In this document: one piece after another, positions 3,284-56,639 of the stretch | Layout: each line of letters begins with the position of its first letter | How positions within the stretch are numbered: position 1 is the first letter of the stretch | DNA from: a virus | Lineage: Duplodnaviria; Caudoviricetes | Length of the DNA stretch: 64,000 bases | Reading direction: 5' to 3' (one strand) | Virus record (IMG/VR): IMGVR_UViG_3300038679_000051 | Span: 64,001-128,000 of that record | The notes under the pieces: model-generated | The model's input: only the letters and a program-made list of their open reading frames with translations | What the model was told of the DNA's origin: nothing | Database searches by the model: none | Position numbers and translations under genes: made by a program

Positions 3284-3328
3284 GAAATCACCCCAATTTG
3301 AGGATGCGTCGAACGGGCCGATTTCATA

Positions 3329-3619
3329 TTATGATTTTTTCTTAGTTGGTTTTCTCTTGGTTTTTCGTTTAGTTTGTGCGGATCGCATCATGGCCGTATC
3401 ATATCCGGCCATGATGGCATTGGCAAACCAACCAATCATCAATCCGCGCTGGTCCTGCACTATGCCTTCCTTAGTGAAGACGCTAAATCTTTTGCAGAAT
3501 TCCGAAGTCCATTTCTGTGCATCCAACGTGTGCGGCCAACGTTGTTTCTCCGTTTCGATCATCACTTTTATCCACCCATCTGGACCACATTGCTTTTTGC
3601 GCTGCCGTTGCTTTTTCAT
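3329..3619 (-). CDS. hypothetical protein bracketed by a direct repeat
   Basis: 96-aa ORF between repeats at 3294-3320 and 3635-3661. Confidence 0.55.
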   Translation of the reverse strand: MKKQRQRKKQCGPDGWIKVMIETEKQRWPHTLDAQKWTSEFCKRFSVFTKEGIVQDQRGLMIGWFANAIMAGYDTAMMRSAQTKRKTKRKPTKKKS

Positions 3620-41678: not shown

Positions 41679-41770
41679 CCCATTACAAGCACACCAACGG
41701 GCGGCGGACTTCTGTGCCTTATAACCCGTGTGGTGTGCTTGTTTCGATCATTAAGATCTCGTCAGATGGG
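41679..41770 (-). ncRNA. type I hammerhead ribozyme with an extended stem III (H2)
   Basis: CCCAT-CTGACGA-GATC(TTAAT)GATC-GAAA-CAAGCACACCA..TGGTGTGCTTG-TA/ATGGG. Confidence 0.85.
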
Positions 41771-42193
41771 TTTTACCCTTTCAATTATTCCGTTCGGCAA
41801 TTAAATGGCCTTGACGTGTGCCGCTCACGTCGAACATGATCGGTAACTAATTGAAGTGGCACCTCCTTTCGTGATCTCAAGGGTTTTTATCTTAGATCGT
41901 ACTTGTTCTTGCTCACTCCGTTGGTGTCCGTGCCGCCTTGCTCGCTCCGGCGGGTCACAGCTTGCGAAGACGTTTGTGCTGGTCACCTTCAACGTCAATA
42001 ATGACTTCACTTCCATCTTCACATTCTTCCAACTCTTCCTCCGTGCGTTTGCCCTCGTTCACCAACGTCTCGACAGCTTTCTCGTCCGAAATGACCCCTC
42101 TGTTTTGGTCACCGTTACAACCGTCGAACACGATCAGGGCAAATCTGCTCATGTGTTTTCTCCTTAGAATGGGGTTTTAGGTGGGTTTCTTTT

Positions 42194-42253
42194 CCCGTGA
42201 CGGGGAGCGCTTGTTCCTCTCCCCGTTTCGACCATTCGGTCTCGTCAGACGGG
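42194..42253 (-). ncRNA. type I hammerhead ribozyme (H3)
   Basis: CCCGT-CTGACGA-GACC(GAAT)GGTC-GAAA-CGGGGAG..CTCCCCG-TC/ACGGG; GUC site; stem I covaries with the other copies. Confidence 0.9.
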
Positions 42254-42329
42254 TTTGTTCTCCTTCAGTCAAGATTTTAAAATGTTTTTGGAAGTGCGGG
42301 TAAAAACCGTATTCCATCCTTGATGGGGT

Positions 42330-42614
42330 CTAAACTTTTCTCATCACTGTCCTGATTGGACATCGCAATTCTACCCATCCAGCCGCTTTACCTGCTTTGA
42401 AGATTATCTTCTTCGGTTTGTTGTTCCATTCATGATCAATGGACAGATCGAGCATTTCATTCAACTCATCGTAACTCAGTTCAACAGCTGGCTGTTCCAT
42501 CATTCCTTCAATGAGTTCATTTAATTCCTTAATTTTACTAACCACCTTAGTTAGCATTAATTTCCGTAATTCAGTTGCATCCAACAGTCTCTCTTCATTC
42601 ATTCTTTTCTCCAA
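42330..42614 (-). CDS. hypothetical protein
   Basis: Co-oriented ORF. Confidence 0.45.
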   Translation of the reverse strand: MEKRMNEERLLDATELRKLMLTKVVSKIKELNELIEGMMEQPAVELSYDELNEMLDLSIDHEWNNKPKKIIFKAGKAAGWVELRCPIRTVMRKV

Positions 42615-42643
42615 TCTTATCTGGATCCCTCAATTTGGTTTGA

Positions 42644-42952
42644 TTACTTTGCCCCGTCAATTCTTATTCCTTTAAAATTTTCTTTGTTTTTAGATGCAAG
42701 AAATTTTTCAATGGCTTTTCTTTCGTCTTTGCTTAAATCATAATCCGACATATTAAAATCAATTTCATCTTTACCATCCCAATCGATTTCACCATCATAT
42801 GTAAAAACGTATGCTATTGGTACAAAACTGCTTTTATCTTTTGTTCCAATTTTTTGTGCCCCTATGCCAGTGTAAACACAATCTGATTTTTCCCATGTAA
42901 CTATGCCTAATCTCCATCCTGATTCTAAAATTGCATCTATCTCTTTCCGCAT
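42644..42952 (-). CDS. hypothetical protein bracketed by a duplicate of the VWA gene 3' end
   Basis: 25-bp repeat at 42626-42650 and 42962-42986; AT-rich. Confidence 0.55.
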   Translation of the reverse strand: MRKEIDAILESGWRLGIVTWEKSDCVYTGIGAQKIGTKDKSSFVPIAYVFTYDGEIDWDGKDEIDFNMSDYDLSKDERKAIEKFLASKNKENFKGIRIDGAK

Positions 42953-42965
42953 GTTTACTCCTCCC

Positions 42966-44288
42966 TCAATTTGGTTTGATTACTTTTCCCCATGTGGGCA
43001 TTTGATTTGAGGATGATACGACATACCACAACATTGGGTATGATTTCTGTTCTGGCCATTCTAGATAACCGTCGGTGATGACTACGTTGACGTCACCGAT
43101 CAAACCGCGTTCTTCTGCCTCTTTCAGTGCTCTGACGATCGACGTCCCACCACGACCGTGGATTTTAATTTTCTTCCAATCACCTTTCCGGTATTTGCTG
43201 ACGTGTTCTATGCCATGATCAAATTCAATTAATCTGATTTTAGATCGGTAGGCGAGTTTTTCAATGTTGCTGAACGCTTCACTGATTTCATCCGGTCCCA
43301 TTGATCCAGACGTATCACAGAATACGCTTAGATCAACCATCGCCCTGCTGGTCGATCCCGGTATGCCGAATCTAGGGAGTCGGCGATTCAATCTGGAAAA
43401 CGTATTGCGTCTTCCGCCGCATTTCTTCCCCATCCATTCGTTCATCTCACGCATCCAATTAGTGCGTACTTCCTTCAATGCTTTGATGGCTTCTTCAAGA
43501 TGACCCGGTGCGTTTCCAGCGGACTTACATGTCTGTGCGACCATGCCATCAACAATCGCACGAGCATCATCCTCATTTGCCGTGCTGTTATCCCACATAC
43601 CATGATCATCAACCATTTCTGGTTTAGCACCGCACGTCGGACACGTATGTTCATCCTTCTCCTGACCCTGATCATCCTGATTTTGACTACCTCCACCACC
43701 TTGGCCTTGATTCTGGCCTTGATTCTGGCCTTGACCCTTCTGATTCTGGCCTTGACCCTTACCCTTACTCTGGTCATTTTTTGCATTCGGGTCGAAATGA
43801 ATGACCATTGCACCGCATGTCGGACAGATAGTAGAATTTTTCTTCAACCAGTCGTAATACTGTTCTGTGCCGAGATTGCTTTCCGGTGCCGTATACCATA
43901 CGACACTATTTGGAAGATAACATTTTTCGCTATAATCTTTGCCCACGATCTTGATGTTTGGATTATCTTTTGTGCCATTGACAATCGCATCAGCCGCGAT
44001 GTTCCAACATTCCTTGATCCTACTCATTTTCCTGATGCAGTGCAATCTGATGATATGATCAATTTCATGTATGATCACACATGCTAATCCCTCATTACTG
44101 AGACTATCGACGAATTCACGATTGTAGACCGAATCCACCGTGCCATCAGAAATGACCGACACGCCCATCGTTTTACAGTCTCTAGCATTTACCTCACGCC
44201 ACCTCATCATTGAAGCGAAAGTCCCATACCATGGCTTCCGCATAAGAAGTTGGCAGCGCACTTTTTGAATTCTTTCCATTTGGATCAT
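42966..44288 (-). CDS. DUF2201-like metallopeptidase plus VWA-domain protein
   Basis: HEIDH (HExxH), WNIAAD, Q/G-rich linker, MIDAS-like DTSGS, GRGGTS, ITDG. Confidence 0.85.
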   Translation of the reverse strand: MIQMERIQKVRCQLLMRKPWYGTFASMMRWREVNARDCKTMGVSVISDGTVDSVYNREFVDSLSNEGLACVIIHEIDHIIRLHCIRKMSRIKECWNIAADAIVNGTKDNPNIKIVGKDYSEKCYLPNSVVWYTAPESNLGTEQYYDWLKKNSTICPTCGAMVIHFDPNAKNDQSKGKGQGQNQKGQGQNQGQNQGQGGGGSQNQDDQGQEKDEHTCPTCGAKPEMVDDHGMWDNSTANEDDARAIVDGMVAQTCKSAGNAPGHLEEAIKALKEVRTNWMREMNEWMGKKCGGRRNTFSRLNRRLPRFGIPGSTSRAMVDLSVFCDTSGSMGPDEISEAFSNIEKLAYRSKIRLIEFDHGIEHVSKYRKGDWKKIKIHGRGGTSIVRALKEAEERGLIGDVNVVITDGYLEWPEQKSYPMLWYVVSSSNQMPTWGKVIKPN

Positions 44289-44359
44289 TTGTCACCTCCT
44301 TCTCTAGTATTTTTGTCAAACATAAACCGTGGGATGGAACAACAATTGAAAGGAACATC

Positions 44360-45415
44360 ATGTTCAACTGGATCAAAACTCAAAATTCTTTACCTCCTTT
44401 CATCGCAGTCGTCAACTGTGATGACTGCGGTGTTGAAATGACGAGGAAAATACGTCGCGAATCAGATTTACAAATTACTAAACATCATTGTAAACGATGT
44501 ACTGCGAAAAGACAATGGCAGGACCCAAAGTTTCGTGAACTCGTGGTTTCAAGCAGTAGGAAAATTTGGAATGACGAGGAACGTCGTACTAAAATGAGTA
44601 AGATACGAACTGATCCTATTCACGTTGCTAAACTCATTGAGAGGAATAAGACAATCAAACCAGACCCAATAAAGGCGTCGATTGCAGCTAAAGCAACTTG
44701 GCAGAAAATTTTATCGGATCATGAACGACATGTTGCTGCCATAAAAGCAAGAACGAGACAAGCAAAAGAAGCATGGACAAACGACGAATTTCGCAATAAG
44801 GTCGTCATGAATAATAGAAAAAATTGGCAAAACGATGAATATCGTACATCAATCGTCGAATCGTCGAAAGAATTGTGGAAAAATAAGGAGTATAGAGATA
44901 AGATACTCAATAAATTACAAGATCCGGAATATCGCATCAAAATGGCAGAGAAAATGCGCAATAAGTGGCGCACCGACGAACAATTTAGACAAAAAATGCG
45001 CGACCAACCAAAAGTTTCAAGCATTCAAAAGACGCTTTATTCCATATTAGATGATCTTAAAATCAATTATTTTAAAGAACGTGAAGATGGACCGTCAGAC
45101 AAAGAATGTATGATCGGTCCGTATCAATTCGATTGTGTCATTCCTCGTGGCAACAAAACGTTACTCATCGAATGTCAGGGTGATTATTGGCATTCAAAGC
45201 CGGACATCATCAGTAGAGATGCGGCAAAATCTTCTTATATAATGAATAATTTTCCAAATCAATATGAAATTAGATATCTTTGGGAACATGAATTTTCACA
45301 GAAAGATAGAATCGTCAATACTATTAAGCATTGGCTCGACATTAACCAGATCGACGTCGTTGACTTTGAATCACAAAATTGCGTGTCTAACGGCTCATTA
45401 ACTGATCGACGATGA
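44360..45415 (+). CDS. free-standing homing-endonuclease-like protein (PD-(D/E)xK, DUF559/Vsr-like)
   Basis: Helical W..P.FR repeats then YQFDCVIP..LIECQGDYWH..YLWEHE; the only long plus-strand gene in the minus-strand block. Confidence 0.7.
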   Translation: MFNWIKTQNSLPPFIAVVNCDDCGVEMTRKIRRESDLQITKHHCKRCTAKRQWQDPKFRELVVSSSRKIWNDEERRTKMSKIRTDPIHVAKLIERNKTIKPDPIKASIAAKATWQKILSDHERHVAAIKARTRQAKEAWTNDEFRNKVVMNNRKNWQNDEYRTSIVESSKELWKNKEYRDKILNKLQDPEYRIKMAEKMRNKWRTDEQFRQKMRDQPKVSSIQKTLYSILDDLKINYFKEREDGPSDKECMIGPYQFDCVIPRGNKTLLIECQGDYWHSKPDIISRDAAKSSYIMNNFPNQYEIRYLWEHEFSQKDRIVNTIKHWLDINQIDVVDFESQNCVSNGSLTDRR

Positions 45416-45999
45416 GGATTACGCTGTTCTCGGAGACATCCAATCACGATGAGACCGGCATCGTGCCGTAATCGCCGCCCTATCTGGATTAATGGCACAT
45501 CCTCCGCAACCTCTGAAATGACGACGTTGGTGTCCTTAACCAAATAATCGTTGATTCGTCTAGTCCCCGTTGGAAGATTAAAGTGAACGATGCCTTTGTC
45601 ATCGAACTTTTCAATCGTTCCCTTATCCAACATTTTCTTAATCAATTCATCGCGTTGTTTGATGATTTCCTCCGGTGGGGTGGGGATTTTACTTACCGCC
45701 TTGCGTTTGGATGCAATGATCTTTGGTATTCCGGCCATCAACGCATCTATGTCCGCATAATAATTGTTGTTGATGCGAAATTGTTTGCCTTGAATATAAA
45801 CGTTCCAATCAAACGTCTTGCCGTCAATTTCAATTTGCATTTGCGCAAGCAACAGGGAACCATACCTGGCAAATTGTGAACCTCTAGCTTCCGGAGAGAT
45901 GGAGATCACGTATCTCACGCCGTCAATCTTGGGCCATTTCTCCCCAAGTCTCTGTCTGACCAACGCATTGATCTCGTCTATCAATTCTTTGCCGTTCAT
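45259..45999 (-). CDS. hypothetical protein; 3' end overlaps the antisense nuclease gene
   Basis: RBS GAGGAG; last ~50 codons run antisense to the nuclease. Confidence 0.45.
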   Translation of the reverse strand: MNGKELIDEINALVRQRLGEKWPKIDGVRYVISISPEARGSQFARYGSLLLAQMQIEIDGKTFDWNVYIQGKQFRINNNYYADIDALMAGIPKIIASKRKAVSKIPTPPEEIIKQRDELIKKMLDKGTIEKFDDKGIVHFNLPTGTRRINDYLVKDTNVVISEVAEDVPLIQIGRRLRHDAGLIVIGCLREQRNPHRRSVNEPLDTQFCDSKSTTSIWLMSSQCLIVLTILSFCENSCSQRYLISY

Positions 46000-46046
46000 T
46001 CTTGCTCCTCTCTTTCTTCGTCATGAGCGTCGTGACCAATTTCGTT

Positions 46047-46736
46047 TCAACATTCTTTCTCCTTTAACCATTCCCCAAACTTCTTGTCGGTCGCGTCGGC
46101 TCCCGTTTGCATTTCACCTACGAAGCGTTTAAACGTCTCGCTTCTTTCATCGTCGCCCAGTTTAATCAACACCGCATCGGCAGCCACGATGAAATGCATG
46201 AAATTGTTCTTATTGAGATGCACTCTTCGGTATGAGATCCAGTCGATCAACTTTCCAATTTCACCGAATTGCGACTGCAGTCGCAGACTGAGTTCTTTGG
46301 CCATCAGCTTCAAATTGTCCAGCGGGAAGTCGCCGGATTTCATCTTGTTCTTTTTCATTCGTTCTCTTCGCGTTTTCTGTTTCGGATCATAGATCAGAAG
46401 TCCGTCTTTGAACTTTATGTCGTCCGGCAATTTCGTGTAAGGATAGTCAATTACTATTGCACCGTATTTCTTTGCCAATTCACATGCTCTGTTTACGTCT
46501 TGACCGACAAAGACCGGTTTTTCGCTTACTCTTATGTTGTTCCAGTTGGTTTTAATCCAGGTCAGATCGGCGTCTTCCAACGATTCTTTCATGCAGGTAG
46601 CGCTTATTGCTGCGATGATCTCTTCTCTTCCACCGTAAATCACTTCACCGGTGGCGTTGATCAGTGGTTCTGGATTGACGCTCATCTCCCACGTGCCGTC
46701 CTCGTTTTTAACTGCTCCCAGCACTTCCATTTCCAT
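46047..46736 (-). CDS. hypothetical protein
   Basis: AGGAGG RBS just downstream of H4. Confidence 0.55.
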   Translation of the reverse strand: MEMEVLGAVKNEDGTWEMSVNPEPLINATGEVIYGGREEIIAAISATCMKESLEDADLTWIKTNWNNIRVSEKPVFVGQDVNRACELAKKYGAIVIDYPYTKLPDDIKFKDGLLIYDPKQKTRRERMKKNKMKSGDFPLDNLKLMAKELSLRLQSQFGEIGKLIDWISYRRVHLNKNNFMHFIVAADAVLIKLGDDERSETFKRFVGEMQTGADATDKKFGEWLKEKEC

Positions 46737-46759
46737 GTTATCCTCCTTTCGATTAGGCT

Positions 46760-46816
46760 CCCATTAGGGGAGAAAATCCTCCCCTTTCATTCCTGCCACG
46801 GAAATCATCAGATGGG
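46760..46816 (-). ncRNA. type I hammerhead ribozyme with a weakened stem II (H4)
   Basis: CCCAT-CTGATGA-TTTCC(GTGGCA)GGAAT-GAAA-GGGGAG..CTCCCC-TA/ATGGG; first stem II pair is U-U. Confidence 0.7.
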
Positions 46817-47107
46817 CAAAGATGAGTGATAAAACTGAAGAACTAAATGTCCTTGTACTTCTTCACTGACCAGACCGTTTTCCAGCGGCGGATTGACGTC
46901 GTTCGAGAAATTTGCAAGGTGTCCATCCGGTACGGAAACGATCGAACAATGTGGATAACCGCTGCCAAAGTCTAAAGCAATTTTTCTTGCTTCTTCTTGA
47001 TTGAGATGTCCTGGAAGGACGATCGGCTTCACATCATCGTCGAGTCGTCCTTCCATGGTTGGAACTACGATGGTAACATTCATTTTGTCAGCGATCCCCT
47101 CGGTCAT
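46808..47107 (-). CDS. hypothetical protein ending in the H4 core
   Basis: Ends CCC ATC TGA; the stop codon is part of CUGAUGA. Confidence 0.45.
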   Translation of the reverse strand: MTEGIADKMNVTIVVPTMEGRLDDDVKPIVLPGHLNQEEARKIALDFGSGYPHCSIVSVPDGHLANFSNDVNPPLENGLVSEEVQGHLVLQFYHSSLPI

Positions 47108-47113
47108 GACTGT

Positions 47114-47770
47114 TTATTTCTCCAGCACGTCCACTTTGATGTCGGCGATCGCTAAAGCGACGTTAGCGAATCCTGACGCGCCGAGCGTCTTGCGGGCGAT
47201 TTCAGCACGAACCGCTCTTTCCATCGTGCCGATCTTGGAGAGTTTCGTGCGGATTTCGATGATCTTCCGTTGGGCGTCATCGATCGCCTTTTCCAGCATT
47301 TCGTTGCGTTTGATCGCTTTCTTTTCCTCGTCGTTCAACTTCCGTTCCAGTTGCGCATCGTACAGGTTGTTGCAGTATGAGTGTTCTTTGTCAACCGAAA
47401 CGACCACGCTCAACATGAGCGTTTCTGCCTTTTCACACGGTCCCACGATTGACGCCTGCATGCTGCATTTCACTTTCACGTTCAGATCCTTGTACGCTTC
47501 CAGCAGCTTTTTCACTTTCGGCGTCCAGTAATTGGTCGCTGACTGAGAAGTCATCTTTTCGAAGCCGTCCTTGTTCTCTTTCAGTTCTTTTTTCGTCGCC
47601 GCCAGTTCGGCCACGATCTTTTTCTCCTCCACCATCAATTTGTTTTCAAATTCAGAGACCTTAATTGCCACCAGATCTCCCGTCGTCACCTGGGCGCTCA
47701 GCGTGGTGACGTTCTTCACATCGAGTTCTTTCTTCATCAGCATCTTCCTCCTTGAAAAGGTGGTTCCCAC
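47114..47770 (-). CDS. coiled-coil hypothetical protein
   Basis: 218 aa, heptad-rich. Confidence 0.55.
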   Translation of the reverse strand: MGTTFSRRKMLMKKELDVKNVTTLSAQVTTGDLVAIKVSEFENKLMVEEKKIVAELAATKKELKENKDGFEKMTSQSATNYWTPKVKKLLEAYKDLNVKVKCSMQASIVGPCEKAETLMLSVVVSVDKEHSYCNNLYDAQLERKLNDEEKKAIKRNEMLEKAIDDAQRKIIEIRTKLSKIGTMERAVRAEIARKTLGASGFANVALAIADIKVDVLEK

Positions 47771-47787
47771 GTCCCCTTCTTGACTTT

Positions 47788-47849
47788 CCCATTAGGGGAG
47801 GATTTCCTCTCCCCTTTCGGCTGGTCGTCATCCAACCTCATCAGATGGG
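47788..47849 (-). ncRNA. type I hammerhead ribozyme (H5)
   Basis: CCCAT-CTGATGA-GGTTGG(ATGACGA)CCAGCC-GAAA-GGGGAG..CTCCCC-TA/ATGGG-AAAGTCA; loop TGAC complements tail GTCA. Confidence 0.9.
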
Positions 47850-48128
47850 CCGTTGAAGTTCAGAGCCAGGATACGTTTCAAAAAATTCAGGATCTTCAGG
47901 ATCAAGACACGGAAATTCTTTCTTTATCCTTGCTGGAATCCCCATCAAATCATCCAGCGTCGCCCTGCGTTCAGTGTGATCATCCGTCAAATCACCCACG
48001 TTGTAAGCCGTCCCGTTCCCATTGACGCAATGCTCTTCTGCCACGTAGACCATTTTACCATTTTCCAAAACAAGAATTTGGTAAAGTCCGTCAGCATCCA
48101 CGTTAATTGACGTCCTAATCTTTGCCAT
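47841..48128 (-). CDS. hypothetical protein ending in the H5 core
   Basis: Ends CGG CCC ATC TGA. Confidence 0.5.
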   Translation of the reverse strand: MAKIRTSINVDADGLYQILVLENGKMVYVAEEHCVNGNGTAYNVGDLTDDHTERRATLDDLMGIPARIKKEFPCLDPEDPEFFETYPGSELQRPI

Positions 48129-48164
48129 CTGATTTCCTCCTCTTGAGTAAATCTGAACGTGGTC

Positions 48165-49334
48165 TTAATCAGGAGAACCTCTTGGTGCCATTTCCGTTTC
48201 GTCTTTTGACATCAGTTGTTTTGTCAACTCGAAGATTTTGGTTCTGCTCGGTATTTCTTTCAGCCAAATGTTGTTCGTCTTTGACATGATGTCGGCGACG
48301 GCTGCATTAGCCACGATCACAATTCCCATGGTTTGATATTGCGGCTTAAGGATTTGTGAGGCTAAGACTATGGCCATGTCTTTTTCCTTCGAGTCGCAGA
48401 GATGTTCCACGAAATCAAAGACATTGCTGACTTGCGCTTTGGTTACTTTCTTGTCCAAATTTCTGATATATGAAACCACACCCCACACCAGACCGGCCAT
48501 CAGATCACGGCTTATTTCTCGTCCCAGATCATAGATCGGTTTCACGCCATAATTCAGGATGTCCTTCGGTTCGATCTCGAAATTGACCTTTTCATATTGG
48601 ATGGCCAATTCACGACCGATCAATCCCGCTCTGACGTCACGCACGACGTCCAATGGGAATTCTGGGGCATGTTTCTCAATGCGTCCCACTGCCTCCCACA
48701 ATCGCGGTGATGGTTCGATCTTGAAATCCAATGAACCTTTTTCTCTCGTGCAGAGATTGGCCGGATCTGAACCGATGAACTGAATGATCCGCGTAACTTC
48801 CGTATTTGTTCTGTTGGTCACGTAGCTCATCCATTCCGTCATGTAATCCTCTGACATGGTCAATTCTACGTGGCAGAATCGTCCAATGAATGCCTTACAG
48901 AAATCGTTGACGTGGTATCCGTTGTTGTAATTGCCAGCACTGACCACTGACCAACCAGTGAAATTATCATTGTCGTCGTATGAGGTTGGTAACTCGTACG
49001 TGCCAATTCTCCTCTCAACGATCAATTGGAACGCCGCCTGAATGACCGGGTCATCTGCTCGATTTAATTCATCCAGAAAGAACAACCCCTGTCCCTCGCG
49101 GGGCAACTCCGCTGGTGGGCGATAGATCGTATAGCCGTTTTCTTTGTCCGGAAATCCTCGGAGATCCGTGGCCTCGATCTGTGCAGCCCGATAATCCACA
49201 AAACCAATTTGCATTTCTTGTGTAACTTGTCTGACGATGCTTGACTTACCCATCCCATGATGACCCCAAATCATGATGGGCACTTGTACTTTGTGACACA
49301 GTCCGATCGCACCCTTCAATTCAGCTACATTCAT
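48165..49334 (-). CDS. MoxR-like AAA+ ATPase
   Basis: Walker A GHHGMGKS, DLRGFP, Walker B FLDELNRA, AGN, RF.H, SPRLW. Confidence 0.85.
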   Translation of the reverse strand: MNVAELKGAIGLCHKVQVPIMIWGHHGMGKSSIVRQVTQEMQIGFVDYRAAQIEATDLRGFPDKENGYTIYRPPAELPREGQGLFFLDELNRADDPVIQAAFQLIVERRIGTYELPTSYDDNDNFTGWSVVSAGNYNNGYHVNDFCKAFIGRFCHVELTMSEDYMTEWMSYVTNRTNTEVTRIIQFIGSDPANLCTREKGSLDFKIEPSPRLWEAVGRIEKHAPEFPLDVVRDVRAGLIGRELAIQYEKVNFEIEPKDILNYGVKPIYDLGREISRDLMAGLVWGVVSYIRNLDKKVTKAQVSNVFDFVEHLCDSKEKDMAIVLASQILKPQYQTMGIVIVANAAVADIMSKTNNIWLKEIPSRTKIFELTKQLMSKDETEMAPRGSPD

Positions 49335-49423
49335 TTCTGTCTCCTTTCATCGCCCCCAACCATTAAATCCGTTCTTCTATCGCGTAAACATTGCGAAATG
49401 TCTGTCATCTCAGAGAACCATTG

Positions 49424-49660
49424 TCATACAGAACGATTAGAAGTTTGGTTCATGAACAGCCCTTCACGTTCGATGCGTGATAATTGCCTTAGATCAGCGG
49501 CAGATAAATCATGGCGCGTCCCCGACGGGGAGATGAACGTCCAGTCGGATTCACATCGCCATCCAGATTCCCAACAACGTGTCACTGCATCTAACCACAT
49601 TTTGTACTTCTCAGAACTCGTTTTCGTTTCATTCATTTGTAACCTCCAACTCAGTACCAC
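49424..49660 (-). CDS. hypothetical protein
   Basis: WTFISPSG..HDLSAADL motif; probable start at internal MNET. Confidence 0.45.
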   Translation of the reverse strand: MVLSWRLQMNETKTSSEKYKMWLDAVTRCWESGWRCESDWTFISPSGTRHDLSAADLRQLSRIEREGLFMNQTSNRSV

Positions 49661-49820
49661 GAATCAGAATTGATCGGCCATCGTCAAACGTCACTTCCCA
49701 CATACAAGGCGGGACTTCCCCGACAATTTTAGTGATTTTGCCGACCATGCCATCATATTTTGGATGCGTCTCACCCTTCACTCTAATCGTAACGCGATCA
49801 CCGACTTTGTTTTTGCTCAT
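49629..49820 (-). CDS. small SH3/KOW-like protein
   Basis: KVGDRVTI...GKIT..V.FDDG. Confidence 0.45.
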   Translation of the reverse strand: MSKNKVGDRVTIRVKGETHPKYDGMVGKITKIVGEVPPCMWEVTFDDGRSILIRGTELEVTNE

Positions 49821-49829
49821 GCACCCCTC

Positions 49830-50282
49830 CTAATATACGGAAAATCCACCACAGTTCTGTAGAAATGTAATGAATTCCTTTAGGTGATCCAAATTAATTC
49901 TGTATGGACTGACCAGATCATCCCTACTGCCCTTGTACGTTTTCATATTGACAAACGCATTGGTTTTCTCGTCAATTACCAACGAATTTGTAGGAAGACG
50001 TAATTCATTGTCACCAAGAACAAAACCAAATTCGGTAGCCAGTGCTGGTTTGTTGATAATTTCGTTTAATTCCTCGGCTACGCGCAGACATTGTTCGTCG
50101 GTCAATCCCGCACCGTCGTTATACCTCATTGCAACGTACACTTCCTCAGAAATCAACTCATTATTGTTTCGTTTGTTGATGATGCCCAACAATTCATGTA
50201 GTGGATGCCATGACCAAATATTAGCCCTGAAATACTCGCCCTGTTCATTTCTCGGTTTAGTCCCGGTTACGTCCATCCCCAT
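49830..50282 (-). CDS. conserved phage protein
   Basis: MGMDV...GEYFRANIWSWHPL...F..FLQNCGGFSVY. Confidence 0.6.
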   Translation of the reverse strand: MGMDVTGTKPRNEQGEYFRANIWSWHPLHELLGIINKRNNNELISEEVYVAMRYNDGAGLTDEQCLRVAEELNEIINKPALATEFGFVLGDNELRLPTNSLVIDEKTNAFVNMKTYKGSRDDLVSPYRINLDHLKEFITFLQNCGGFSVY

Positions 50283-51037
50283 TCATTTACCCTCCTTTTC
50301 GTCTCTCCATGTTTTATCTCCTCTCTAAGGGCTGGGTCCTTGACATATTGAAGTGCCCAACCATCCTGTTGCGCTGCTACCATACATATTTCCAGTGTCT
50401 GTTCTTTAACAAATTGAAGTGCGTAACAATTTTGTCTTACTGCTGCCATGCACATTTCCGGCGTCTGTTCTTTGTTGTTCGCAGAATATTTGACATATCT
50501 AAGTGCCCAACCATGTTGTTTTACTGCCGCCATACATATTTCTGGCGTTTGTTCTTTGACATATCGAAGTGCATCACCATCTTGTTGCACTGCTGCCATA
50601 CATATTTCTGGCGTCTGTTCTTTGACATATTCAAGTGCCGAACCATTTTGTTGTACTGCTGCCAGATATAATTCCGGCGTCTGTTCCTTGACATAATCGA
50701 GTGCAAAACCGTTTCGTTTTACTGCTACCATGCACAATTCCGGCGTCTGTTCCTTAACATAATGAAGTGCCAGACCATCTCGTTTTACCGCCGCTAGACA
50801 TATGTCTGGCGTCTGCTCTTCAACAAATTCAAGCGCTCGACGATTTTGTTGCACTGCCGCCATGCATATTTCAGGAAATTGCTCATTTAGGTGTTTGAGT
50901 ACATTCCCTAAACCTATTTCATCATTCATCAATTTCTTGACAATCGTTGCATCCTTCATTCGTTCATAATCAATCTTCCTCATTGCCTGGATCACGTCAT
51001 TTAATTGTTCTTTGGTTACGTTCGTCATCCAGTGCAC
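50267..51037 (-). CDS. DUF4116-like repeat protein with MHW leader (GTG start)
   Basis: About 8 repeats; flanked by a perfect 37-bp direct repeat at 50311-50347 and 51038-51074. Confidence 0.75.
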   Translation of the reverse strand: MHWMTNVTKEQLNDVIQAMRKIDYERMKDATIVKKLMNDEIGLGNVLKHLNEQFPEICMAAVQQNRRALEFVEEQTPDICLAAVKRDGLALHYVKEQTPELCMVAVKRNGFALDYVKEQTPELYLAAVQQNGSALEYVKEQTPEICMAAVQQDGDALRYVKEQTPEICMAAVKQHGWALRYVKYSANNKEQTPEMCMAAVRQNCYALQFVKEQTLEICMVAAQQDGWALQYVKDPALREEIKHGETKRRVNEWGWT

Positions 51038-51137
51038 GTTTTATCTCCTCTCTAAGGGCTGGGTCCTTGACATACTTAAGTGCCTGACCATCTTGTCTTA
51101 CTGCCGCTGCCAGCCGTCGTTGCAGTCGTTGCTCCTT

Positions 51138-51458
51138 TCATCTCCATTCCCACAGACATGAGTTTATTTTGATGCGTTTATTGCTTTTCCGCAACCTGTC
51201 GCCCAGGTCTTTCAGAGATGACTTATTGAACCAGAAACCAACTCGTTCCCATTTATCCTTGGGATACCAATCACAAGCGACAACATCATTTTTTACTACT
51301 TCCAGAAACAACCGCCCATCATCCAACAGGAGAACGACCAGATTCTCCCTGACGGCAAACGCCTTGAAATCATAAGCTTTGCCCATGATTTCTTCTCGTT
51401 CAAATTCATTTGCCGTTCTGGGTTTCATATACAGTTGTGCAAGTGCATTCATTCCCAT
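51138..51458 (-). CDS. hypothetical protein
   Basis: RBS AGGAGG. Confidence 0.45.
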   Translation of the reverse strand: MGMNALAQLYMKPRTANEFEREEIMGKAYDFKAFAVRENLVVLLLDDGRLFLEVVKNDVVACDWYPKDKWERVGFWFNKSSLKDLGDRLRKSNKRIKINSCLWEWR

Positions 51459-51476
51459 TTTTAATCCTCCTTGATG

Positions 51477-51665
51477 TCAGAACTCGTCCACATCGCCATA
51501 TTTGGTTAGAACGGCGATGACTGCCTCTTTGATTTGCCCAGCGATTTTCTCAACGTCTGCAGTCCCATCACGGATCTTAATTAATTCAAGATCAATAAAG
51601 ATCTCGACGTCTTCCTTCTTCTGTGAAGTCAGAATAATGTTAACGTCCAGTTGGCTGACTGTCAT
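51477..51665 (-). CDS. hypothetical protein
   Basis: ATGA coupling. Confidence 0.45.
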   Translation of the reverse strand: MTVSQLDVNIILTSQKKEDVEIFIDLELIKIRDGTADVEKIAGQIKEAVIAVLTKYGDVDEF

Positions 51666-51904
51666 CGCTCGTTTCTCCTTAATGGTAGTTTTCTGAGTTC
51701 GTTCTCGATTGCTTTCCCAATATAAGGGCTGAACATAGATAACAATGCCGGTGAAATCTTTTTCTTTACCTTCGGTTCCATCCGTTCAATATTTGTGGAG
51801 GGAACCTGCCGAGCACAACATTTCTTCTTCTTTTTGCCGCTGCCACACGAACATGGCTTATTCATGTTTGCAGTGTCCTTGACATATGCCGTGGTACTTG
51901 CCAT
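51662..51904 (-). CDS. SEC-C metal-binding motif protein
   Basis: NKPCSCGSGKKKKKCC. Confidence 0.7.
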   Translation of the reverse strand: MASTTAYVKDTANMNKPCSCGSGKKKKKCCARQVPSTNIERMEPKVKKKISPALLSMFSPYIGKAIENELRKLPLRRNER

Positions 51905-51921
51905 ATCTCATTGGTTCTCTC

Positions 51922-52248
51922 CTACCATTCAGTCCACACGTCACACACCAGTTTAGTGAGGTTCGCTTCTTCGATTTCGTACTTGCCCCGCATTTCCGGT
52001 AAGGCGTAAACGTATTTCCCGTCTTCCTTGATGACGAACGTACAAAAGCCCGAATCAAAGAAGACGTCGGTACCGTCTGGTACTTCAAACGAGCCGTGCT
52101 CGTCGATTTTATCATCGATATTGAAACCAGGACTTTCCTTGATGGCTTTCTTGGAGATTAAAACCATCTTCATTCGGTCGTGGCAAACGGCGTAGTTGAG
52201 CGTCGTCTTTCCACGTTTGGTCTTGATCTTATCCTTTATCTGTGTCAT
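51922..52248 (-). CDS. hypothetical protein
   Basis: ATGA coupling. Confidence 0.45.
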   Translation of the reverse strand: MTQIKDKIKTKRGKTTLNYAVCHDRMKMVLISKKAIKESPGFNIDDKIDEHGSFEVPDGTDVFFDSGFCTFVIKEDGKYVYALPEMRGKYEIEEANLTKLVCDVWTEW

Positions 52249-52622
52249 TTGGTCATATCGTTTCTAGTGTTTTCATCCATTCCATACAGCATATCACGGA
52301 CGGCCTTAATTGCTTTCTCAAGGTCTTCTGATGAGATCTCATCAGGCTCGCTCATGAGATGGTCCCACATGTATTCGGCCAATGCAGGGATGAACGAATT
52401 GTCTAAATCATTCACGGTCGTTGCGGTTCCGCTCATCATCATGACTACGGAAAAATCTACTGCCCTCATCTGCCAACCAATGACGTACTTCATGCTGAGA
52501 TAACAAAGATTGTTCAGTTCTTCAGTGGTTGGCACGTGCGTAGTAAAATCAACCAGTACCGGTGCGTTCTTGTTCTTGTCCTCAATCATCTTAATCCAAT
52601 CATGTAGTTCTTTTCTTGTCAT
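52245..52622 (-). CDS. hypothetical protein
   Basis: RBS AAGGAG. Confidence 0.5.
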   Translation of the reverse strand: MTRKELHDWIKMIEDKNKNAPVLVDFTTHVPTTEELNNLCYLSMKYVIGWQMRAVDFSVVMMMSGTATTVNDLDNSFIPALAEYMWDHLMSEPDEISSEDLEKAIKAVRDMLYGMDENTRNDMTK

Positions 52623-52682
52623 GGCGTTCTCCTTAAATGGTTATTAGTGTTTTCTGAGTTCGTTTTATTCATCCGTTCCTCG

Positions 52683-52928
52683 TTATTCATTAAGGCGCTG
52701 GAAGTTCTTAAAATCATCACTCCAAATTTGACGACTCGCATCGTTTTCAAATTTCACGATCATTTTGGGTCGACCGTCTTCAAATGGTTCAACGTCAGTC
52801 ACTACACCAGTCATTCCTTTACTGACATGAAGATGCTGTTTTTCGCCATCAGACCAGAAAACATCATTCAAAACGACAACCCGATCACCCTTTATCATTT
52901 TCTTTTCCCTTTCTTTTGTCATTTTCAT
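52683..52928 (-). CDS. small SH3/KOW-like protein
   Basis: KGDRVVVL...GMTGVV; starts just after H6. Confidence 0.45.
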   Translation of the reverse strand: MKMTKEREKKMIKGDRVVVLNDVFWSDGEKQHLHVSKGMTGVVTDVEPFEDGRPKMIVKFENDASRQIWSDDFKNFQRLNE

Positions 52929-52953
52929 TTATTATTTCCCAACATCTTAGTTT

Positions 52954-53012
52954 CCCATTAGGGGATATGAGATCCCCTTTCGACTAGTTACTAGCTAGTC
53001 TCATCAGATGGG
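52954..53012 (-). ncRNA. type I hammerhead ribozyme (H6)
   Basis: CCCAT-CTGATGA-GACTAG(CTAGTAA)CTAGTC-GAAA-GGGGAT..ATCCCC-TA/ATGGG-AAACTA; loop TAGT complements tail ACTA. Confidence 0.9.
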
Positions 53013-53119
53013 TCAATTATGGTTCCGAGGCATATCCCATACAGTAATCACATTCATAAATCATATGCATATGACATCTACATCCCGGCGGTCTACTTCT
53101 GACATCCGCCTCTTCCAAA

Positions 53120-53413
53120 TCACACCTGAAAAACATCCGGTGCACGCCAGGTGATCCATTCCCTATCCCAGAATCTCAAATCACTCTTTTCATCTGCTGT
53201 TCGGACCATAAACATACCATTCCCCATATCCATAACAAACCATCTATAAACACCATCTGGTTTGTCAGACATATAACAGACCGGTCGTTCCCCGTTCTCC
53301 AACAGAAAAACATCACACTCCCAACATTTCACAATCACATGCGCACCAACTAGTTCAGCCAACGCATCGAGATCATCATGGTTTTTCACGTTATAATCCC
53401 CCTGAACAATCAC
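53120..53413 (-). CDS. hypothetical protein
   Basis: Co-oriented; strongly G/T-biased coding strand. Confidence 0.45.
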   Translation of the reverse strand: MIVQGDYNVKNHDDLDALAELVGAHVIVKCWECDVFLLENGERPVCYMSDKPDGVYRWFVMDMGNGMFMVRTADEKSDLRFWDREWITWRAPDVFQV

Positions 53414-53604
53414 AAAACACGTACCAACTCAGTTTCATCATCAAACGAAATAACTTCATTTATTTCACAACTAGTAGTATAATACACAATGTCACGCTTC
53501 GAATAATTAAAGTTAGAACAACCCATAATCTCTTGAACAGACTTAAACGTCAAATCATCACTCAAAAAAACACCATCAGACTTCCGCCTAATCCTAAATC
53601 TCAT
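53410..53604 (-). CDS. hypothetical protein
   Basis: GTGA overlap with the next gene; G/T-biased. Confidence 0.4.
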   Translation of the reverse strand: MRFRIRRKSDGVFLSDDLTFKSVQEIMGCSNFNYSKRDIVYYTTSCEINEVISFDDETELVRVL

Positions 53605-53868
53605 CCAAATGCCTCATCACTCATCGCATTCCCTCCCAATCATCGAAACAATCCCGTTGTTGGTGTTGGTTGAAGAACCCTTTAAGTGCGTGTAAGAGGC
53701 TTGATTATCGCAAATATATTATATATTTTAATTATTTCACTAATAGGATATTAACAGCTTGCTAATGCTTACTTAATAGCTCCCGTATGCGACCCTAATG
53801 CACATAGAGCAAGCGTTGACGCTCATTGTGCAGCTCATTGTGCACTGACTTATTGCACACCGAGCAAG

Positions 53869-54081
53869 CGTTGACGCTCATTGTGCATCAATACGTTCTG
53901 GGTTAGTTTGAACCAGAACAAAGAAAACCGCTATCCACATTTAAGATGCTCCGGTTTTCCCGGCTACATTTTACGTGGAAATCACCCAATCTAACGCTTG
54001 CGGCGTTAGCTCTAAGGGTGACTTGTTGCGGCAAAACGTTGACGCTCATTGTGCATCAATACGTTCTGGGTTAGTTTGAAC
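53869..54081. repeat. 45-bp direct repeat duplicating the 3' end of the receiver gene
   Basis: CGTTGACGCTCATTGTGCATCAATACGTTCTGGGTTAGTTTGAAC at 53869-53913 and 54037-54081; partial third copy near 53807-53832. Confidence 0.85.
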
Positions 54082-54384
54082 TGGATCACACCGAACCAAC
54101 TCGGTAACACTAATTCTGATGTACCCCATTGCCACTAACGCACGAGCGATGTTTTCTCTCCCCACTGGATTCATAGTTACTAATACGACCGCTTCTGGTT
54201 GATAGGCAGGATTTTGTTCCAGCCAATTGGTTATATCATATCCCGTCTTCTCCTCACCTAAATCGTGGTCCAAGTACAGGACATCCCAGGGACCATTCTG
54301 TAATGCCACAATTCCGTCATCATATGTTCTGGCTGTGCGGTGGACGGTCATTACTCTTAAATCATCAATCAGAAGCATTTTCAT
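54046..54384 (-). CDS. stand-alone receiver domain of the cyclic-phosphate-processing type
   Basis: LLIDDLR...LYLDHDLGEEKTGYDITNWL...TMNPVGRENI. Confidence 0.7.
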   Translation of the reverse strand: MKMLLIDDLRVMTVHRTARTYDDGIVALQNGPWDVLYLDHDLGEEKTGYDITNWLEQNPAYQPEAVVLVTMNPVGRENIARALVAMGYIRISVTELVRCDPVQTNPERIDAQ

Positions 54385-54395
54385 ATGGCATCTCC

Positions 54396-54650
54396 TCAGA
54401 CATCTGGTTCCCGTTCTTTATGCCTGGCAAAACGCGACCGCGTTTCTTCTGCTCCCGCGTTATAACCAGCACACCATCGTTGGTTCCAGGCATTCAAATG
54501 AATCTCAATAAATTTCCCGACGACATCCATAGCAACTTCATGTGTGCAACCTGTCGTTTTACGAATATAAATTGCCATCTCTCGGTGCCAATTTGGTGTT
54601 TCGGCATTTTGAAGTTCATCGTGATCCATTTTGGCACCCTCCTCCTTCAT
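54396..54650 (-). CDS. hypothetical protein
   Basis: Co-oriented ORF. Confidence 0.4.
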   Translation of the reverse strand: MKEEGAKMDHDELQNAETPNWHREMAIYIRKTTGCTHEVAMDVVGKFIEIHLNAWNQRWCAGYNAGAEETRSRFARHKEREPDV

Positions 54651-54800
54651 GATTTACCCACAAGAATCCGTCCCAGTCGTTTGTGACCAGCATGTTTGTA
54701 CCATTTCTTCCACCAAATGGCGACTTCTTTTGCCGACCATTCCTTGTTGAATTCCTCGGCAGCTTGTTCTGCGGCTACATCCATTCCGTCTGGGATCATG

Positions 54801-55145
54801 TCATTTCTCCTTGATCGTTTTATCACAATGCCAGTAACAATCATCACCTTGTTGGAGATTCCAAACACGGAATGATACTGCTTTAAATGACGGTTTGCCG
54901 TCGACTCCTGGTCGAGCAGCATTTTCGAAAACGCCCACAGGGACTTTCAAGATGTAATTCAGTGCAGCAGCAGGATTGACAACAACTACACCTTCGTACT
55001 CCTCATCTTTATCACCAGCAGCAGTTTCACTGAATGCATCCTCATCACCAACGTGGACCAACTCGATGCGAAGCTGGTCTGCCAACTGAATCTGATCCTC
55101 GGTCGGTACATGTCTTGAAATGAATGCGAATCTCTTTTTTCTCAT
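54801..55145 (-). CDS. hypothetical phage protein
   Basis: FAFISRHVPT.DQ..LA...ELVHVGD.DAF...VVVVNPAAAL...GVFEN..R motif. Confidence 0.55.
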   Translation of the reverse strand: MRKKRFAFISRHVPTEDQIQLADQLRIELVHVGDEDAFSETAAGDKDEEYEGVVVVNPAAALNYILKVPVGVFENAARPGVDGKPSFKAVSFRVWNLQQGDDCYWHCDKTIKEK

Positions 55146-55253
55146 CTCTCCCTCCCTTTCGTTTGGTGGATGTTATTTGTGGGGTTTCTACATATACAAG
55201 CCTATTGTCATATCTGACCGATTTCGGGGGATATAACAACATATACGTTTCTA

Positions 55254-55439
55254 TTAGATGACATCATAACCGTTGAGGAAGATAACACCATCACCGCGAC
55301 GAGCACGACGGTGTGCAGCTTTCTTCAGCTGCTTTTTGATTTTCTGAGAACAACGGGTCTTCGCACGACAAGACCATGACCACTTCCAGTCGTTGGAGAA
55401 ATATTCCTTCTCTACGATCTTGCTGGTGCTTCGACGCAT
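55254..55439 (-). CDS. small basic protein inside the inverted repeat
   Basis: AGGAGG RBS directly after H7; KKAAHRRARR. Confidence 0.5.
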   Translation of the reverse strand: MRRSTSKIVEKEYFSNDWKWSWSCRAKTRCSQKIKKQLKKAAHRRARRGDGVIFLNGYDVI

Positions 55440-55466
55440 GCCACACCTCCTTTCAGTTTGGTGGCT

Positions 55467-55523
55467 CCCATTAGGGGAGGTTTCCCTCCCCTTTCGACCG
55501 TGCCACCGGTCTCCTCAGATGGG
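55467..55523 (-). ncRNA. type I hammerhead ribozyme (H7)
   Basis: CCCAT-CTGAGGA-GACCG(GTGGCA)CGGTC-GAAA-GGGGAGG..CCTCCCC-TA/ATGGG-AGCCAC; loop GTGGC complements tail GCCAC. Confidence 0.9.
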
Positions 55524-55682
55524 CTGCAGCACCCTAGCTTCTTCCTGCACGCGGGTTCTCTTCGGCTTACTGGGGTACTTTGCATATGAACCAATCCAAT
55601 GAAGAGTTGGTTCATGTGCTTTTCCCCCATCTTCAGCAGCTAGTTTCGGTCGAGGGCTTTCGACCGTTGTGCGGTGCTGCAT
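55515..55682 (-). CDS. possible 55-aa ORF ending in the H7 core
   Basis: MQHRTTVESP...RVLQPI-TGA, read by hand; not in the ORF track. Confidence 0.3.
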   Translation of the reverse strand: MQHRTTVESPRPKLAAEDGGKAHEPTLHWIGSYAKYPSKPKRTRVQEEARVLQPI

Positions 55683-55956
55683 TCTTATTTTTTACGAATA
55701 TCGCATAAGAAACCTCCTTCTTTAATTGTACCGGGATCTACGGTCAGGAGCACAAGCATATTTTGCCTCCCAGTATCTAATGGCTCCCTCCGGACTGGGT
55801 CTTAATTCACAAGAATGTCGCACCTCCTTTCTTGGTTTGTATGTTCATCGGCAATAAAAGCGTATATGTTGCTATATCCCCCGAAATCGGTCAGATATGA
55901 CAATAGGCTTGTATATGTTGCCACCGGGGATGATTTATTGTCCCCGGTGGCACAGG

Positions 55957-56163
55957 TCATTTGGCTTGCAGCGCAGCCTCGATAGCTGCCTGCAGGTCGA
56001 TTACCTGCATGTGGCGTGCACGATTCAACATCTTTATGTAATTCGCGGCTTCATCGACCGTCCCACGATAGACGGTCTGACCACTTCTTTTCCTGATTTC
56101 CACCATCTTCTTGTCTGGGGACGGGAAGCATTTCAGTCCCAACTGGCACAGGTTTTCATTCAT
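55957..56163 (-). CDS. hypothetical protein
   Basis: AGGAGG RBS. Confidence 0.5.
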   Translation of the reverse strand: MNENLCQLGLKCFPSPDKKMVEIRKRSGQTVYRGTVDEAANYIKMLNRARHMQVIDLQAAIEAALQAK

Positions 56164-56291
56164 TGGACACCTCCTTTTTCTGACTTTACTCTACTCGATT
56201 AGGATCACAATGATCCCTGGGTAGACAACCCTCTTTGTGGAAGGTTGTCTACCGAGGGATCATACCCTCGGCGGGCTTTCACCCGGTGTGA

Positions 56292-56525
56292 CTAGTCCTG
56301 CGAGGCTTCCCATTCAACTTCACCCAACGGGAAGGGTCCGAACCCCTTGGTACAGACATGGGTCTTTTCTCCCGCACCCATGACATAGCTGATGACCCGA
56401 TCCGCCGTTTCTCCGGCAATACGGATCTTGTCACCTTTCTTGAGATTCGCACCAGCCGCTCCCACTTTCAAGCTGCCCGTGTCGTTGTTCGTCACTTTGT
56501 TCGCCATTCTACACCTCCCTCTCAA
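56292..56525 (-). CDS. small protein, tandem paralogue A (probable start MANKVT)
   Basis: NNDTGSLKVG..G.NLK.GDKIRI...ISY.MGAGEKTHVCTKGFGPFPLGEVE. Confidence 0.6.
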   Translation of the reverse strand: MRGRCRMANKVTNNDTGSLKVGAAGANLKKGDKIRIAGETADRVISYVMGAGEKTHVCTKGFGPFPLGEVEWEASQD

Positions 56526-56577
56526 ATTAGAAGATTATCGTCGGGTGAAACACTCACCTTACGAAACCTTCTGGTTT

Positions 56578-56639
56578 CCCATTAGGGAGAGAAAATCCTC
56601 CCCCTTTCGGCTGGGGACCACCCAGCCTCATCAGATGGG
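56578..56639 (-). ncRNA. type I hammerhead ribozyme (H8)
   Basis: CCCAT-CTGATGA-GGCTGGG(TGGTC)CCCAGCC-GAAA-GGGGGAGG..TCTCTCCC-TA/ATGGG-AAACCA; loop TGGT complements tail ACCA. Confidence 0.9.

Follow-up and report, generated by a model that had tools for sequence, protein, structure and literature searches.

In bacterial rRNA operons, leader and trailer sequences pair into stems which are substrates of RNase III and release the rRNA. Invertons and the invertible segments of phages (Mu G and P1 C, together with the promoter invertons of gut bacteria) are served by a dedicated recombinase, mostly encoded next to the segment, and either both orientations are functional or a promoter lies inside. 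MITEs and the ultra-small mobile elements of mycobacteriophages (MPME) occur in multiple copies and duplicate their target. For the icaR mRNA of Staphylococcus aureus, pairing of the 5′-UTR with the 3′-UTR creates an RNase III site and also hides the ribosome-binding site (PMC3868564). Concerning ribozymes, Perreault et al. (2011) described clustered hammerheads flanking single genes in polycistronic RNAs of prophage type, with a pseudoknot between stems I and II (PMC3088659).

The locus analyzed here lies in a window of 64,000 nucleotides, which covers bases 64001-128000 of a complete virus record (320,399 bp, with direct terminal repeats). Two long arms in inverted orientation enclose a type I hammerhead, H7, and a gene for a small basic protein. 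We consider this feature, present in a single copy, to be real and unusual; the reading we favor is that of a frame, at the level of RNA, around a gene cassette processed by a ribozyme, its function being a proposal. A literature search turned up no report of a hammerhead-gene unit enclosed by a long perfect helix.

Geometry and uniqueness of the inverted repeat

The earlier note on this DNA had described near-perfect inverted repeats of 57 bp with one mismatch, bounding about 730 bp. Alignment together with a stem scan agrees with this description, giving core arms of 58 nt with a single mismatch, 613 nt apart. A repeat search extended them to 73 nt, 92% complementary and 597 nt apart. The arms, named below by their order in minus-strand RNA, and their immediate surroundings are as follows (window positions).

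55957..56163, minus strand: upstream flanking gene, 68 aa, an orphan
55920..55951, minus strand: perfect 11-bp G+C-rich hairpin, 1 nt from IR-R and after the stop of the 68-aa gene, without U-tract
55861..55918 (core) and 55853-55925 (extended), minus strand: IR-R, the upstream arm in minus-strand RNA
55813..55852, minus strand: decayed inner continuation of IR-R, with imperfect pairing to the final codons of the 61-aa gene (55256-55295)
55190..55247 (core) and 55183-55255 (extended), minus strand: IR-L, the downstream arm in minus-strand RNA
54801..55145, minus strand: downstream flanking gene, 114 aa, with a ribosome-binding site ~30 nt beyond IR-L

The sole core mismatch is located at 55236 (partner 55872) and forms a G.U pair on the sense RNA, and the extended IR-L ends within the stop codon of the 61-aa gene. 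The sequences flanking the arms are ...GGGGTTTCT and TGCCACCGG..., and no direct repeat of at least 3 nt was found at any boundary between the 58-nt and the 73-nt limits, as the earlier note had anticipated in reporting no obvious target duplication.

BLAST of the second arm against the first gave E = 2.9e-25 within the 320-kb genome, hence the match is not due to chance. When the whole genome was compared with its own minus strand, a handful of inverted repeats was recovered and the highest-identity separated (non-hairpin) pair was that of the 55190/55918 arms. The only other sizeable separated inverted repeat of the genome lies outside the window, at genome positions 272833-273078 and 276557-276802 (246 bp, 81%, 3.5 kb apart).

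No third copy of the arm exists in the 320-kb genome. Exact arm words of 21-27 nt were absent from IMG/VR and from JGI metagenomes, in scans that are blind to diverged copies. GTDB genomes gave one match to an arm 21-mer; since its flanks differ and the number is about that expected by chance for a 21-mer, we take it as fortuitous. Likewise, a DNA search of INPHARED for the repeat or the cassette returned no match.

We then consider the distribution of differences between the arms. Divergence climbs inwards, from 1/58 in the outer core to 3/15 in the extension and ~35% further in, which suggests that the outer core is kept by selection or by conversion. The four differences of the 73-nt arms are all transitions and three of the four are wobbles on sense RNA, a proportion that is not statistically significant. 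Complementarity continues imperfectly for ~40 nt inwards: the duplex formed by the inner continuation scored -22.4 versus -15.4 for shuffled sequences (P ~0.03).

Hammerhead H7 and the genes of the cassette

Leftwards of a strand switch near 57.0 kb, all credible genes lie on the minus strand and are preceded by strong ribosome-binding sites of the GGAGG type, so that both arms would be copied into one long polycistronic RNA. We infer from this arrangement that the cassette is co-transcribed with its neighbors, ~1.1-1.8 kb into a long leftward transcription unit. Neither a sigma-70-type promoter nor an intrinsic terminator was found in the arms, and a scan for tRNA and tmRNA gave none.

On the minus strand, the order is 68-aa gene, 11-bp hairpin, IR-R, ~330 nt, H7, ribosome-binding site, 61-aa gene and IR-L. 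The contents named in the earlier note, H7, the ORF at 55254..55439 and a possible 55-aa ORF, are all present in the enclosed 613 bp, which besides the hammerhead and the 61-aa gene carry smaller ORFs:

55685..55759, minus strand: 24-aa ORF with ribosome-binding site GGGAGG, coding status uncertain
55515..55682, minus strand: possible 55-aa ORF, ending Pro-Ile-stop inside H7 stem I
55467..55523, minus strand: H7, type I hammerhead motif (stem I CCCAU/AUGGG, core CUGAGGA, GAAA; stems of 5, 5 and 7 bp)
55254..55439, minus strand: gene for a basic protein of 61 aa, with a strong ribosome-binding site AAGGAGGTG at 55452-55444

The ~330-nt leader between IR-R and H7 shows moderate predicted structure (z = -2.7) and contains a 4-codon mini-ORF. 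At 55815-55831 on the minus strand, it carries a near-copy of the ribosome-binding site and start of the 61-aa gene (GAAAGGAGGTG...), in which ATG is changed to ATT and a stop follows four codons on; this could be a gene start that has decayed or, alternatively, a leader mini-ORF. The 55-aa ORF lacks its own ribosome-binding site, and its ATG lies 2 nt past the stop of the 24-aa ORF. Its codon score is modest, and neither a homologue nor an occurrence in the protein collection was found. All ribosome-binding sites of the cassette lie on the minus strand; on the plus strand, none is present together with a start codon, and the plus-strand ORFs score as non-coding.

The 61-aa gene is, on the strength of its sequence relatives, a real gene that belongs to a small family of conserved phage proteins. 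An exhaustive phmmer search gave four relatives of 47-60 aa with 39-55% identity, sharing the motif W..AW..R.KTR...KK.AHR.ARRGDG..RL...DV, and the identical protein is encoded on five contigs in all, one of them the present genome; the four others also encode the identical 114-aa protein of the downstream flanking gene. Searches of Pfam and PHROG returned no match, the Atlas returned only unnamed viral clusters, and the AlphaFold model consists of two helices at low confidence (pLDDT 62). Only one relative could be seen in its context, at 3307-3477 of another phage locus, L101, where it is an ordinary small gene. There, no flanking repeat of at least 23 nt, none above 88% complementarity and no ribozyme were detected; the repeat is thus not a property of the 61-aa gene family. 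That relative is directly upstream of a dATP/dGTP diphosphohydrolase-type gene (PF18909), and its other neighbors encode a DUF5906 protein, a Dam-type methyltransferase and an exonuclease. The family may therefore travel with nucleotide or DNA-modification modules.

Of the flanking genes, that of 114 aa encodes a member of a widespread family of unknown function (>100 members of ~97 aa, ~40-58% identity), found in phages, metagenomes and some bacteria. The 114-aa protein has no match in Pfam or PHROG, and neither it nor the 68-aa protein has a match among isolated phages. The 47 IMG/VR loci with distant homologues of the 114-aa protein showed no common neighbors and no hammerhead.

H7 presents all invariant core positions of hammerheads (C3-U4-G5-A6-N7-G8-A9, G12-A13-A14, A15.1-U16.1 and H17), and the predicted cut falls between 55472 and 55471 at a UA site (CUGAGGA ... 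GAAA ... UA|AUGGG). On sequence grounds it is a real hammerhead motif, for which self-cleavage is predicted. With our own pattern, six type I motifs were recovered in the 320-kb genome, all on the minus strand between 41.6 and 56.6 kb of the window, and a seventh hammerhead, at 46760-46816, fits on alignment by eye. The seven thus occupy window positions 41679-56639. Their stems II and III vary in sequence yet stay paired, that is, they covary. The same pattern gave 0 matches in 844 kb of other phage loci. Rfam searches at gathering and permissive thresholds returned no family of any kind; none of the seven was recognized as a hammerhead, even at E <= 10 (a 121-nt stretch in the case of H7), and an exact pattern made from the stem sequences of the array, blind to diverged copies, had no match in IMG/VR.

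In most of the seven copies, the 4-5 nt directly behind stem I are complementary to loop II, as in UGAC/GUCA at 47788; in H7, loop II GUGGC (55506-55502) can pair with GCCAC (55465-55461). These loop-tail pairs differ between copies, and their summed lengths exceed those obtained with shuffled tails (P = 0.0013). As in the array of Perreault et al., several coding-strand hammerheads lie at gene junctions and a loop-tail pseudoknot is predicted (PMC3088659). The phage hammerheads differ from those cases in being type I with a 5-bp stem I, missed by Rfam models, and a term search of that article showed no long inverted repeat around a ribozyme-gene unit (PMC3088659).

The interior of the cassette has no paralogue in the genome except the other hammerheads. 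Its only similarity is that of H7 with the hammerhead at 46760 (75% over 79 nt), which indicates that H7 is native to the phage and a paralogue of its other hammerheads.

The arms considered at the DNA level

Three options had been offered for the repeat: an invertible segment, a MITE-like element or an RNA panhandle. According to the first, the 613-bp segment would be inverted by recombination between the arms, which would switch off H7 and the 61-aa gene. With 58-bp repeats on both sides of ~0.6 kb, the geometry is what inverton finders look for, and a stretch of a few hundred bp lies between inverted repeats, as in invertons. In addition, the arms are long enough for inversion by general homologous recombination. 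Unlike invertons, however, the cassette lacks any promoter-like site inside and any signal on the other strand, and no site-specific recombinase was found in the replicon. Six-frame searches of the complete 320-kb genome, in which positive controls worked, gave neither a serine (PF00239) nor a tyrosine (PF00589) recombinase.

Moreover, the flipped orientation would offer neither a credible ORF nor a ribosome-binding site accompanied by a start codon, and the assembled orientation agrees with that of all other hammerheads and genes. We consequently regard an invertible switch as improbable. Inversion would, as the earlier note supposed, move H7 off the coding strand, and general recombination between the 58-bp arms might occasionally produce it, but nothing indicates a regulated event. 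Were the arms nevertheless a DNA switch, the cassette would represent a phage inverton without a recombinase of its own.

We also examined the sequence composition of the arms. Each consists of two ACATATAC boxes and a palindrome ATATC-N15-GATAT, and ACATATAC is over-represented in the window, with 7 occurrences where 1.3 are expected; the arms contain four of the 7. This would fit paired sites bound by a protein of the phage, such as two operators or a site of DNA looping. However, the composite occurs at no other site of the genome, and the remaining ACATATAC matches are inside repeated genes. No DNA-binding gene was identified nearby, the 61-aa protein itself giving only the low-confidence two-helix model. 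Such a role of the arms appears very unlikely.

The second option, a MITE-like element, is also disfavored. The cassette resembles MITEs and MPME in its small size, terminal inverted repeats, small ORF and location in a phage genome. The earlier note was right that no transposase is present, as judged from a search for one DDE family (rve) and from the recombinase searches. Unlike these elements, it is single-copy: no other copy or parent element was found in the genome, nor by exact words in three public collections, a result that is strong without being absolute, since diverged copies escape such scans. It has no target-site duplication, and it contains a phage-native ribozyme. Since H7 is a paralogue of the other hammerheads of the phage, the cassette is not a foreign MITE.

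More generally, the repeat could be a by-product without present function, left by an inverted duplication of ~100 nt of spacer, as a scar of the recombination that placed the 61-aa cassette, or as a MITE-like relic, its identity being kept by youth or by gene conversion. This view is favored by the pair being single in the genome and absent elsewhere according to exact-word scans, and by the relative of the 61-aa gene that has no repeat in another phage. Also, deletion of 55190-55918 leaves a normal-looking spacer (hairpin, ~40 nt, ribosome-binding site and gene), and decayed translation starts are found between IR-R and H7.

On the other hand, the uneven divergence, 1 in 58 nt and then 3 in 15 (binomial P ~0.03), is unexpected for neutral decay after one event. 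The missing target duplication and the absence of a transposase of the one DDE family searched for (rve) also count against this view, and H7 as a native paralogue implies that the segment was not imported whole. On balance, we judge a functionless by-product rather unlikely, though likelier than an invertible switch.

The arms considered at the RNA level

The third option, an RNA panhandle, fits best: the arms are in spacers, the predicted fold is dominated by the helix, and the G.U pair exists on the sense RNA only. We tentatively propose that the arms act as RNA, forming a stem for RNase III-type processing or for insulation in the leftward polycistronic RNA, in concert with H7. IR-R would be transcribed from the spacer after the 68-aa gene and IR-L from the spacer between the 61-aa and 114-aa genes. 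Their pairing would give an uninterrupted helix of 58 bp, imperfect for ~40 more nt, closing a 613-nt loop in which the leader, the 61-aa gene and H7 lie. Perfect helices of this length are substrates of the double-strand-specific RNase III of the host. The 61-aa message might then owe its 5′ end to the H7 cut and its 3′ end to cleavage in the helix. The latter would also uncouple the cassette from its neighbors on both sides, in the way leader-trailer stems release rRNAs. As no RNase III or RtcB (PF01139) of its own was found in the phage, the host enzyme would be needed. The data show the repeat, its uniqueness, its place between translated regions, the hammerhead motif and the predicted fold, and from there we infer co-transcription, formation of the helix in the cell, cleavage by RNase III and an effect on expression.

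Folding of the region 55965..55140 gave a structure dominated by the helix (MFE -352 kcal/mol, z = -14), which is present in both MFE and centroid folds; since every inverted repeat in DNA gives a helix once transcribed, this result does not count as independent evidence. The core duplex of the sense RNA has 58 unbroken pairs including the one G.U (-103.4 kcal/mol), while that of the antisense RNA is broken by an A.C into 46 + 11 pairs (-99.1 kcal/mol), a small difference in energy. With 58 bp and -103 kcal/mol, and being stable against alternative folds, the helix is above the limit of ~20 bp or more for double-stranded RNA. The arms avoid well-supported coding sequence and ribosome-binding sites and are on the same strand as all neighboring genes. 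No relative bearing the repeat was found in the collections searched, and the related gene in L101, the only one seen in context, has no repeat, which counts against the helix as an acting element.

The operon is rich in features related to RNA processing: seven same-strand hammerheads, a 24-bp hairpin at 56210-56263 and, inside the hammerhead array, a cREC gene.

54046-54384, minus strand: stand-alone cREC_REC receiver-domain gene (PF20274, E = 3.6e-19)

cREC is the ‘cyclic-phosphate processing’ family of Pfam. Among 50 loci with cREC homologues, our pattern detected no type I hammerhead.

A general rule of helix-framed genes in this operon was considered and rejected: its other long-range stems were at shuffle level, and no other gene had a comparable frame.

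Among described systems, the stems of rRNA operons resemble the proposed one in that a functional unit is framed by a long helix, here predicted, between complementary segments located far apart on one transcript. It differs in that the unit is a small protein gene with a ribozyme, that the helix is a perfect 58 bp without the usual bulges and that cleavage is a proposal. As described for icaR (PMC3868564), the predicted pairing is long-range within one mRNA, and a ribosome-binding site is involved: in the inner extension of the phage arms, GGAGG would pair with a CUUCCUC located close to the 3′ end of the gene. Unlike the phage helix, the icaR pairing is short and regulates translation of its own gene (PMC3868564), and the paired ribosome-binding site of the phage belongs to the decayed start and not to the 61-aa gene.

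A more specific form of the RNA proposal would be an excision module made of ribozyme and panhandle. The helix would hold both hammerhead products together and supply the double-stranded cutting site, so that one small gene would leave a transcript tens of kilobases long as a separate RNA, its 5′-OH end made by the ribozyme and its 3′ end protected by the helix. We consider this version distinctly doubtful; if true, an mRNA would be made in a manner resembling rRNA maturation. The cassette, which joins a predicted ribozyme cut with a predicted long-range helix, bears on what bacterial and phage hammerheads are for. It offers a concrete example, easy to test, of the way in which messages for single genes might be carved by a phage from a very long transcript. 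Were the arms neither an RNA helix nor a switch, they would be a one-off duplication of no wider interest.

Two further observations concern the region upstream of the cassette. The 24-bp hairpin at 56210-56263, with a 6-nt loop, is located between the 77-aa and 68-aa genes; the 320-kb genome contains only about five long palindromes, this one included. Of the two mismatches in the hairpin, one is a transition and forms a G.U pair on the minus-strand (sense) RNA, and the hairpin is a candidate RNase III-type site. Finally, the segment 56292-56846 carries tandem paralogous small genes (77 aa and 68 aa, with a 342-bp period), between which hammerhead H8 is found.
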